Source of the DNA: a virus
Lineage: Duplodnaviria > Heunggongvirae > Uroviricota > Caudoviricetes
IMG/VR virus record: IMGVR_UViG_2695420632_000012
Location: 1-4,784 of that record
Reading direction: 5' to 3' (one strand)
Length of the DNA stretch: 4,784 nt
Of this stretch, positions 1-3,000 are shown piece by piece; position 1 is the stretch's first letter, and every line of letters starts with the position of its first letter. A program made the position numbers.

Positions 1-3000
1 AGGGCGCGGCTGGTAAGAGAGCCTTATAGGCGCATTTGAAAAACCTCCGGCTATGCCGGAGGATATTTATTTGTTTTTCTTTACTTTCATTTTCTGTCGG
101 CGGTGACGGAGACATACATCAGATGGAAAAAATCACAACAGGTGTGTCATACACCACGTCAGCAGTGGGGACGGGATACTGGTTACTGCAGCTGCTGGAC
201 AAAGTCTCTCCGTCCCAGTGGGTGGCAATCGGTGTGCTGGGGAGTCTGCTGTTTGGCCTGCTGACGTATCTGACTAACCTGTATTTCAAAATCAGAGAGG
301 ACCGTCGTAAGGCGGCGCGGGGGGAGTAAAGCGATGAAGAAAAAATACGAACTGGGTGTTAAAGGGATAAATAATTACCCGGATAAGATTACTGTTACTG
401 TTACTGTTACTGTTACTGTTACTGTGGCACTGGAAATTGGTGGGTATCCGTCACTGTTGTTGCCAGATGTGGCGATTAGTCTTGACCGTACTGAAGGAGC
501 CACGCTGGAGTTTTACGAAGCTGAGGCGAAAAAGCAGGCGAAGCAGTTTTTCATGGATGTTGCTGCCGGGTTATGTGAAGGGGATGGTCCGTTGCCGGAA
601 AAGCGCCCCGTAATTTTAGAGGCGCAGGATGTGTTGATAACCTACAGAGGAAAACTACCGGGAATAATTACTGGTTCTCTGAAGACTCCACCGCTGGCCT
701 GAAGACTTAACATATCCAGGGATTTGAAATCGATAAACCCTGATAAATATCCATGAACGCAAAAATCAGATACGGCCTGTCGGCTGCCGTTCTGGCGCTG
801 ATTGGTGCAGGGGCGTCTGCGCCTGAAATCCTCGACCAGTTTCTTGACGAAAAAGAAGGTAACCACACCACGGCATACCGTGATGGTGCGGGGATCTGGA
901 CCATCTGCCGCGGTACCACCCGAGTGGATGGTAAACCTGTCGTCCCGGGCATGAAGTTGTCGAAGGAAAAATGCGACCAGGTTAACGCCATTGAACGTGA
1001 TAAGGCGCTGGAGTGGGGGGAGCGCAATATTAAAGTACCGCTGACCGAACCCCAGAAGGCGGGTATCGCGTCATTTTGTCCTTATAACATTGGCCCCGGT
1101 AAGTGTTTCCCGTCTACGTTTTACAGACGGATTAATGCAGGTGATCTAAAAGGTGCCTGCGAAGCGTTCGCTGGTGGATTAAGGACGGTGGCAGAGACTG
1201 CCGTATCCGCTCAAATAATTGCTACGGTCAGGTATCCCGGCGAGACCAGGAAAGTGCACTGGCGTGCTGGGGAATTGACAGGCAAGTAGAATATTTTGCT
1301 GAAAATGACGTTGGTCAACGCGGGTGGGTAACACGAAATCCTGCGAACTGGCAAAAGCTAAGTGAATAAAAGTAAAACCTCGTTTGTTGGCCGCAAACGG
1401 GGTTTTGTGTTTCTGACCTTGAGTAAGGCAAAGGAGAACATAGGAAAGTATAAACGAATTCTGTTGAGATTGACTATGAAAGACGGCCTTGAACTGAAAG
1501 CGCCTGTAACTGATGACGTCAGCAGAGCGCTGGCTTTTGCTATTAAGTGGGTGGCGGTCGGTATTGCTGTGTCTCCGATGCTGTATGGGCTGGCAAAACT
1601 GGTCATTGCGTTGAAATCGTGAAGAGGATTAAGCATGTCAGACAAGCTCATAACGCTGGCGAAGATCCTCTGTGTAATCGTCGGCATTTCATTTTCACTA
1701 ATATGCTGGTTGCTATTTGCTTTTCCACTGCCTGGCGCGTCTTAACTTTGTCAGGGCTGGTGGGGTGAGGGGGATATGAACCGTGTTCTGTGTGTGGTGA
1801 TTATTGTCCTGCTGGTAGCCTGTGGTGCGCTTGGTCTGGGGCTGAATCATTACCGCGATAACGCCATTACCTACAAAGCGCAACGCGATAAAAAAGCCAG
1901 TGAGCTAAAGCTGGCGAACGTGACAATTACTGATATGCAGGTACGCCAGCGTGATGTCGCTGCACTTGATGCCAGATACTCGAGGGAATTAGCCGATGCG
2001 AGAGCTGAAAATGAAACTCTGCGTGCTGATGTTGCCGTTGGTCGTAAGCGCCTGCGCATCAACGCCAACTGTCCAGGCTCCTTGCGTAAAGCCCCCATCA
2101 CCTCCGGCGTGGATAATGCAACCGGTCCCCGACTGGCAGAAGCCGCTGAACGGGATTATTTCATCCTCAGAGAACGGCTGATGGCAATGCAGAAGCAACT
2201 GGAAGGAGCACAGGAATATATCCGTACCCAGTGTATACCGTGATGTTTTGTTATGAAGGTGTTACTGGTAACGTTAAGGTAATTTAACAAAGAGTCAGTT
2301 CCGGACTTTATAGTGTGCTCAGTTCATGGCCAAAAACGATTTCTGTGATAAATATTTTGAATATTATTTACAGGTAAATAGAGTGGGGCACATGGATAGA
2401 AATATTACAATAGAGTATGAAGTATATGCCCGTATTGTATGGGCAGAGAAGGCAAAAACACGGTAATTCCGTGTGTTGCCATGATACCTGATTGGCAGAA
2501 TAGTTGTTTGGTTTTGAGTATATAGTCAGCGTTTTTTGTTCAGTAATTGCTCCCTTAAAAAATAATAAAATAAGGTGATTATTTTTTTATTATTTAGTTT
2601 TTTTTGTATGTTGTTTTATTGTTTTTGCGTGGTTTGTTTTTTATTGTTATTTCATTAAGGGAAGGTAAATTCAGGATGGCAGTCTGTAGATAATCGGAGG
2701 TCACTTATGCTACATGATCACGTGGCAGAATGTCTGGAGAAAAAAGGACTGTACCGGAGAGCAGCTGAACGATGGGCAAAAGTGATGGTACAGCTAAGTG
2801 ATGACCAGAAAAGAAAAGTGGCGGCACAGAAACGAGCAGAGTGTTTGCGTAAGGCGCGCCGGACTCCGGTTTCACCGGTGAACCTGACCGAAATAAAACA
2901 AGCGGTCAACAGACTACATTCTGAGTTGGGAATGGGATTTGAAGAGCGGCGGGTATTCCGACGATATAAAGGGACAGGAGAACAGAATACGTCCGGAAAC

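Follow-up and report, generated by a model that had tools for sequence, protein, structure and literature searches.

The window analysed here is a 4,784-nt stretch of DNA from a virus of the Caudoviricetes (IMG/VR record IMGVR_UViG_2695420632_000012, positions 1 to 4,784), near the start of which a ydfR-family gene contains a tandem array of the hexanucleotide ACTGTT. We characterized this array, its copy number in related prophages, plasmids and genomes, and the state of the lysis cassette in which it lies. The gene and the array are as follows.

389–426, + strand: hexanucleotide tandem array (ACTGTT)5-ACTGTG, codon register 391–426 (Tandem Repeats Finder, regular expression and shuffle control).
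334–702, + strand: ydfR-family gene (DUF1327), 122 amino acids (Pfam PF07041, E = 2.9e-44; phrog_406, E = 2.9e-62; RefSeq ‘YdfR family protein’ in relatives).

A regular-expression read-out of positions 391–426 gives five identical ACTGTT units followed by ACTGTG. Tandem Repeats Finder places the same head-to-tail copies at 389–425 in the TTACTG register, with a period of 6, 6.2 copies, 100% matches, no indels and a score of 74, and an 18-nt three-unit probe matched four times in the window with at most one mismatch, whereas none of 200 dinucleotide-preserving shuffles contained any match. The array starts at codon 20 of the open reading frame (ORF) at 334–702 and keeps its frame, so that its product is (TV)6, six Thr-Val pairs forming YdfR residues 20–31 in the context ...DKI-TVTVTVTVTVTV-ALEIGG; with its flanks it takes the pattern form GGATAAGATT-(ACTGTK)n-GCACTGG, and we denote alleles by their number of units, n. 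A preliminary description of the window had reported five perfect and one imperfect copy of ACTGTT in this ORF, in frame and translating to (TV)6, and the read-out, Tandem Repeats Finder and translation all agree with it. By exact protein look-up, 14 further public contigs encode the identical 122-amino-acid n = 6 protein, which rules out an assembly artefact. Compared with shuffled sequence, the repeat DNA shows no propensity to form hairpins on either strand (z = 0.37 and 2.05), and hairpin-driven expansion was rejected on this ground.

The ORF is a member of the DUF1327 family, matching PF07041 with 149.7 bits against a cutoff of 25; residues 1–120 align to profile positions 1–92 of 93, and the additional TV units form an insertion against the profile. 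The gene lies between a holin gene (123–329) and a lysozyme gene that starts at 753, with its ATG 4 nt downstream of the holin stop codon, which is the position expected in a lambdoid lysis cassette. The holin–ydfR–lysozyme order recurs in K-12 Qin (essQ–ydfR–rrrQ), in CE10 and in one Shiga toxin (Stx) prophage. The concern raised earlier that the ORF might lack conservation and so be no gene is not borne out by this family score and cassette position. Although the PHROGs families for YdfR, including phrog_406, carry no function label, a 2026 study found by two-hybrid and co-purification that K-12 YdfR binds the catalytic N-terminal domain of RNase E, with the contact lying within YdfR residues 1–72; RNA co-purifies with the protein (PMC13232886). 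The earlier statement that the function is unknown is slightly outdated as regards molecular contacts.

The window YdfR resembles K-12 Qin YdfR (P76160) in its PF07041 domain, in its position between holin (essQ in Qin) and lysozyme (rrrQ) and in the N-terminal strand, which reads KVTVTVAL in K-12. It differs from the K-12 protein by an eight-residue insertion in strand β2. K-12 YdfR also has (TV)2, encoded by the unrepeated codons ACG GTA ACT GTA, and contains no microsatellite; at 103 amino acids it is shorter through a different C-terminal third. The preliminary description had taken the shorter K-12 protein as fitting a variable repeat, an argument that we rejected, as K-12 keeps TVTV and the length difference lies at the C terminus. 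The (TV)2 motif is the TVTV part of a conserved β-strand, K-I/V-T-V-T-V-A-L, in the YdfR N-terminal domain, and the length of this strand is constant across diverged family members, as K-[VI]-x-V-x-[VIL]-[AT]-L, even where other codons are used. In an AlphaFold model of the two-unit allele, the N-terminal domain is β-β-β-α (predicted local distance difference test (pLDDT) 73–90), with TVTV inside strand E18–27 (pLDDT 80–90); fold searches returned weak matches only.

Other length variation in the family was also observed. DUF1327 proteins (P0007, P0013 and P0032; loci L003, L030 and L046) share an N-terminal part of about 110 amino acids and carry several alternative C-terminal extensions, for totals of 114, 176, 183, 211 and 233 amino acids. 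Three ORFs on single NCBI contigs (P0001–P0003; 207, 196 and 169 amino acids) scored far above a self-match and were considered as giant TV expansions, a candidate rejected because they contain large internal duplications of most of the gene, each with (TV)2; either true tandem duplications or paralogous prophage copies that were mis-assembled may account for them.

Two units are the near-universal state of the locus. The closest relatives of the window, the ML35 chromosome and five plasmids of 82–101 kb that are 99% identical over window 66–4784, encode a YdfR identical to that of the window except for (TV)2, specified by ACTGTT-ACTGTG. In a spread sample of 3,017 matching E. coli records, every array-spanning match was 24 nt shorter across the array, as were, exactly, the 60 best phage records (60 of 60). 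Searched with a gapped pattern that covers n = 1 to 6, IMG/VR and metagenome contigs gave n = 2 at 135 of 136 loci and n = 1 at the remaining one, with no locus of n ≥ 3 among the 136; the pattern had no match in genome contigs. At none of the 2,675 places probed in 809 complete E. coli genomes, and in no PLSDB plasmid, did a 47-nt probe requiring n ≥ 3 find such an allele, and scans requiring n ≥ 3 had no match in IMG/VR, metagenome contigs or GTDB genome contigs. The ten best matches of the 47-nt probe were examined as candidate three-unit alleles and rejected: each is the CE10-type TVTV-VLE (n = 2) aligned with a gap. The two-unit allele makes up at least ~98% of copies in every collection sampled.

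Rarer alleles were retrieved by exact-sequence look-ups of synthetic alleles in four protein backgrounds, G8/PVIL (that of the window), V8/PVIL, V8/PIIL and G8/PIIL. Counts are contigs, and ranges reflect two indexes that disagree.

G8/PVIL: n = 1, 1; n = 2, at least 991; n = 3, 10–17; n = 5, 3–4; n = 6, 14.
V8/PVIL and V8/PIIL: n = 2, 990 and 859, respectively; n = 3, 3 and 1; n = 1, n = 5 and n = 6 not found.
G8/PIIL: n = 1, 3–7; n = 2, 138; n = 3, 1; n = 5 and n = 6 not found.

Non-modal alleles thus account for ~48 contigs against at least 2,978 with n = 2 over the four backgrounds, or at most ~1.6%. The cluster look-up returned no allele of n = 4 or of n = 7 to 10, a soft negative because it also missed n = 6 (14 contigs), and the negatives for long alleles outside the background of the window are soft for this reason too. 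All variant arrays consist of pure whole units, and every observed allele is in frame. We observed n = 5 and n = 6 exclusively in a remnant lineage that already has a frameshifted lysozyme gene. An intact Stx prophage on 5.2-Mb contigs carries one of the V8 alleles of n = 3. The preliminary description had read the array as a variable number tandem repeat (VNTR) and proposed counting its units across prophages and strains. Copy number does differ between strains (n = 1, 2, 3, 5 and 6, in whole units) and is not identical in all homologues, so this count does not refute slippage; the locus is nonetheless not generally variable, and its allelic diversity falls short of the strain-typing marker also proposed, a use that is possible within one lineage.

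The setting of the array in this lineage is a decayed lysis cassette, the remaining features of which are as follows.

1–65, + strand: right end of an insertion sequence (IS) of the IS200 family, with a terminator-like hairpin at 44–62 (comparison with locus L153; terminator scan).
123–329, + strand: class II (P21-type) holin gene, directly 5′ of ydfR (Pfam PF04971, E = 8.8e-33; ‘class II holin family protein’ in relatives).
753–1289, + strand: phage lysozyme pseudogene (PF00959; alignment to intact lysozymes and three-frame translation).
1776–2243, + strand: Rz spanin gene with an embedded Rz1 ORF at 1996–2181 (Pfam PF03245, E = 1.6e-45; Rz1 PF06085 at the corresponding position of related contigs).

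Deletion of 1 nt near position 1166 puts the lysozyme out of frame from about codon 138; another frame still encodes the normal C terminus, RWWIKDGGRDCRIRSNNCYGQVSRRDQESALACWGIDR, and the normal TAA stop has also been lost or replaced (stop region about 1270–1290). The loci with three, five and six units share this frameshift with one n = 2 locus, L083, but not with ML35 or the plasmids, the lysozyme of which RefSeq labels a pseudogene. At the upstream boundary, locus L153 (1–670), 99.9% identical to the window, has a Y1_Tnp gene directly upstream. The terminator-like hairpin of the IS200-family element abuts the holin gene, no sigma-70-like site was found on the + strand in window 1–800, and the end of the element replaces the phage late-promoter region upstream of the holin. 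The closest relatives have ISEc20 (IS110 family) at this boundary in place of the IS200-family end. The array had been described earlier as part of a lysis cassette; here, that cassette is not working, as its lysozyme gene is frameshifted and it is cut off by the IS200-family element.

Comparison of the expanded loci reveals how the array changes. Loci L140 (n = 5) and L154 (n = 6) differ by one unit and have no substitutions over 4.6 kb, and L141 and L158 likewise have none, so that whole-unit change has occurred between otherwise identical backgrounds; an n = 5/n = 6 pair with no other difference over 4.6 kb is what slippage predicts. Within the remnant family, the n = 3 alleles have T at both sites 1018 and 1286 and the n = 5 and n = 6 alleles have G at both, and because these are different sub-haplotypes, the n = 3 and n = 5/6 expansions are separate events. 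Locus L083 (n = 2) combines G/G at these sites with the lysozyme frameshift and has 12 differences from the window over the 1.1-kb region compared. Once the other backgrounds are included, at least five independent gains and two independent losses are needed to account for the alleles. For the 6-bp VNTRs of E. coli O157, mutation by whole units is established, with insertions accounting for 59% of events and multi-unit steps frequent (PMC3777172). Steps of whole units, repeated occurrence, an excess of gains over losses and further change in the longer array all fit slipped-strand mispairing. The n = 5/n = 6 pair and the pure in-frame alleles also agree with the earlier expectation that slippage at this locus keeps the frame and changes protein length by units.

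Taken together, we consider it very probable that the array is a coding hexanucleotide microsatellite that grew by slippage from a two-unit motif in a gene under relaxed selection. According to this model, the ancestral ACTGTT-ACTGTG motif would be lengthened by slipped-strand mispairing during replication. Several prophage backgrounds have gained or lost one unit independently of each other, and one lineage has an array that reached five and six units and still shifts by single units. Instability would rise with array length, such that lineages at three or more units keep drifting, and the eight extra residues would be tolerated there through relaxed selection on the gene. At the protein level, the insertion would lengthen or disturb strand β2 of the domain that contacts RNase E in K-12 YdfR. 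In the AlphaFold model of the six-unit allele, the strands are drawn longer (19–33) and the confidence in the N-terminal domain falls to ~50–58, which weakly suggests that the TV insertion may disturb the YdfR fold.

Several points weigh against this interpretation. The variants were retrieved by exact protein match, so their clustering near the haplotype of the window arises partly by construction, and slippage is deduced from the pattern of alleles and not from a mutation rate. With n = 4 and n ≥ 7 not found (soft negatives, as above), the route from two to five or six units is unobserved and may have involved a multi-unit jump. Relaxed selection is argued from the frameshifted lysozyme and the missing promoter and not from expression data, and one-unit gains occur in intact prophages too, so that the first step does not require decay. 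The lower AlphaFold confidence may do no more than reflect inserted residues that lie outside alignment coverage.

Growth of the array by recombination, through unequal crossing-over or gene conversion between ydfR paralogues of one genome, is improbable, if the least so of the alternatives to slippage. Genomes carry up to eight ydfR copies, and a role for recombination in large VNTR changes has been proposed (PMC3777172). The potential donor paralogues nevertheless all have two units, which leaves conversion without a source of longer arrays; in a repeat of only 12 nt, unequal exchange would require a register shift that is mechanistically close to slippage; and the n = 5/n = 6 pairs stand one unit apart without any flanking change.

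An adaptive contingency locus, in which a selected TV-tract length tunes YdfR through lysis timing or through its RNase E or RNA contact, is very unlikely, and we hold it just as doubtful that the tract is a tunable spacer in the RNase E- or RNA-binding N-terminal domain, the expansion of which alters YdfR action on host RNA decay or lysis timing. The tract does lie within the N-terminal 72 residues, through which K-12 YdfR interacts with RNase E (PMC13232886), and its copy number has changed repeatedly. Against this stand the predominance of the two-unit allele everywhere, the invariant strand length across diverged members even where codons differ, and the occurrence of the long alleles beside a frameshifted lysozyme in a promoterless cassette. 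The contingency loci of Haemophilus, Neisseria and Campylobacter are similar in that a short tandem repeat in a gene changes length by slippage, but their repeats have units of 1, 2, 4, 5 or 7 nt, or lie in promoters, and switch expression. In contrast, the ydfR array lies within the ORF with all alleles in frame, and ydfR does not belong to the surface or host-interaction genes; as units of 6 nt always preserve the reading frame, the array cannot act as an on/off switch.

A sequencing or assembly artefact, in which six copies were mis-assembled from a two-copy locus, would agree with the absence of n ≥ 3 from complete RefSeq E. coli genomes, phage records and PLSDB plasmids, but has a negligible probability given that 14 independent contigs, drawn from various assemblies and one metagenome, encode the exact protein, that the n = 5 and n = 3 alleles are recurrent too, and that a 36-nt array is far below sequencing-read length.

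Slippage growth of a two-unit motif, the reading we prefer, places the array beside known VNTRs. Like the 6-bp coding VNTRs used in multiple-locus VNTR analysis (MLVA) of E. coli O157:H7 (Vhec/TR/O157-n) and like STTR5/6 of Salmonella Typhimurium, it is in frame and head to tail and gains and loses whole units (PMC3777172), and, as at the O157:H7 6-bp loci, close isolates stand one unit apart. Unit numbers at those highly diverse loci typically range from 5 to above 20, whereas the ydfR array has a modal two units (at least ~98%) and a maximum of six among the alleles seen. Full-text literature searches found no paper naming the ydfR repeat locus, the primer tables of MLVA schemes not being part of the comparison. 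The array is an ordinary microsatellite, a rare slippage expansion of a normally fixed two-copy motif, and no new biological device.

The sequence downstream of the cassette contains further features. Upstream of a PerC-family regulator gene (2707–3021; Pfam, E = 3.8e-44), positions 2560–2660 are very AT-rich, with degenerate T-rich repeats of 7–16 nt (Tandem Repeats Finder rows at 2579–2625). After perC, ~3099–3531 is a frameshifted, truncated nleH pseudogene by the RefSeq annotation of relatives. A 291-amino-acid ORF at 3803–4678 has no Pfam match but matches PHROG 6583, ‘T3SS (type III secretion system) secreted effector Ibe’, over its full length (E = 1.4e-198), and its counterpart in ML35 is annotated ‘secretion protein EspS’. 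An IS3-family element starts at ~4710 (4710–4784), and the same 75 nt lie inverted upstream of the cassette in several relatives (L001, 1144–1218 and 7678–8891). These inverted copies mean that the lysis remnant, perC, the nleH remnant and ibe are bracketed by inverted IS3-family copies; the closest relatives, too, carry the nleH pseudogene, ‘EspS’ and flanking IS3-family copies. The presence of this bracketed unit on plasmids and a chromosome suggests a composite mobile module.

Within the IS-bounded perC/ibe lineage, typing by the array (three, five or six units) could tell very closely related isolates apart; across E. coli in general the marker is nearly monomorphic, and its practical value is small. 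The natural insertion alleles, which add two, six and eight residues to the domain of YdfR reported to bind RNase E, could be used as ready variants in interaction studies. The locus provides an example of how a two-unit motif in a conserved β-strand occasionally seeds a microsatellite that goes on growing in a decaying prophage.
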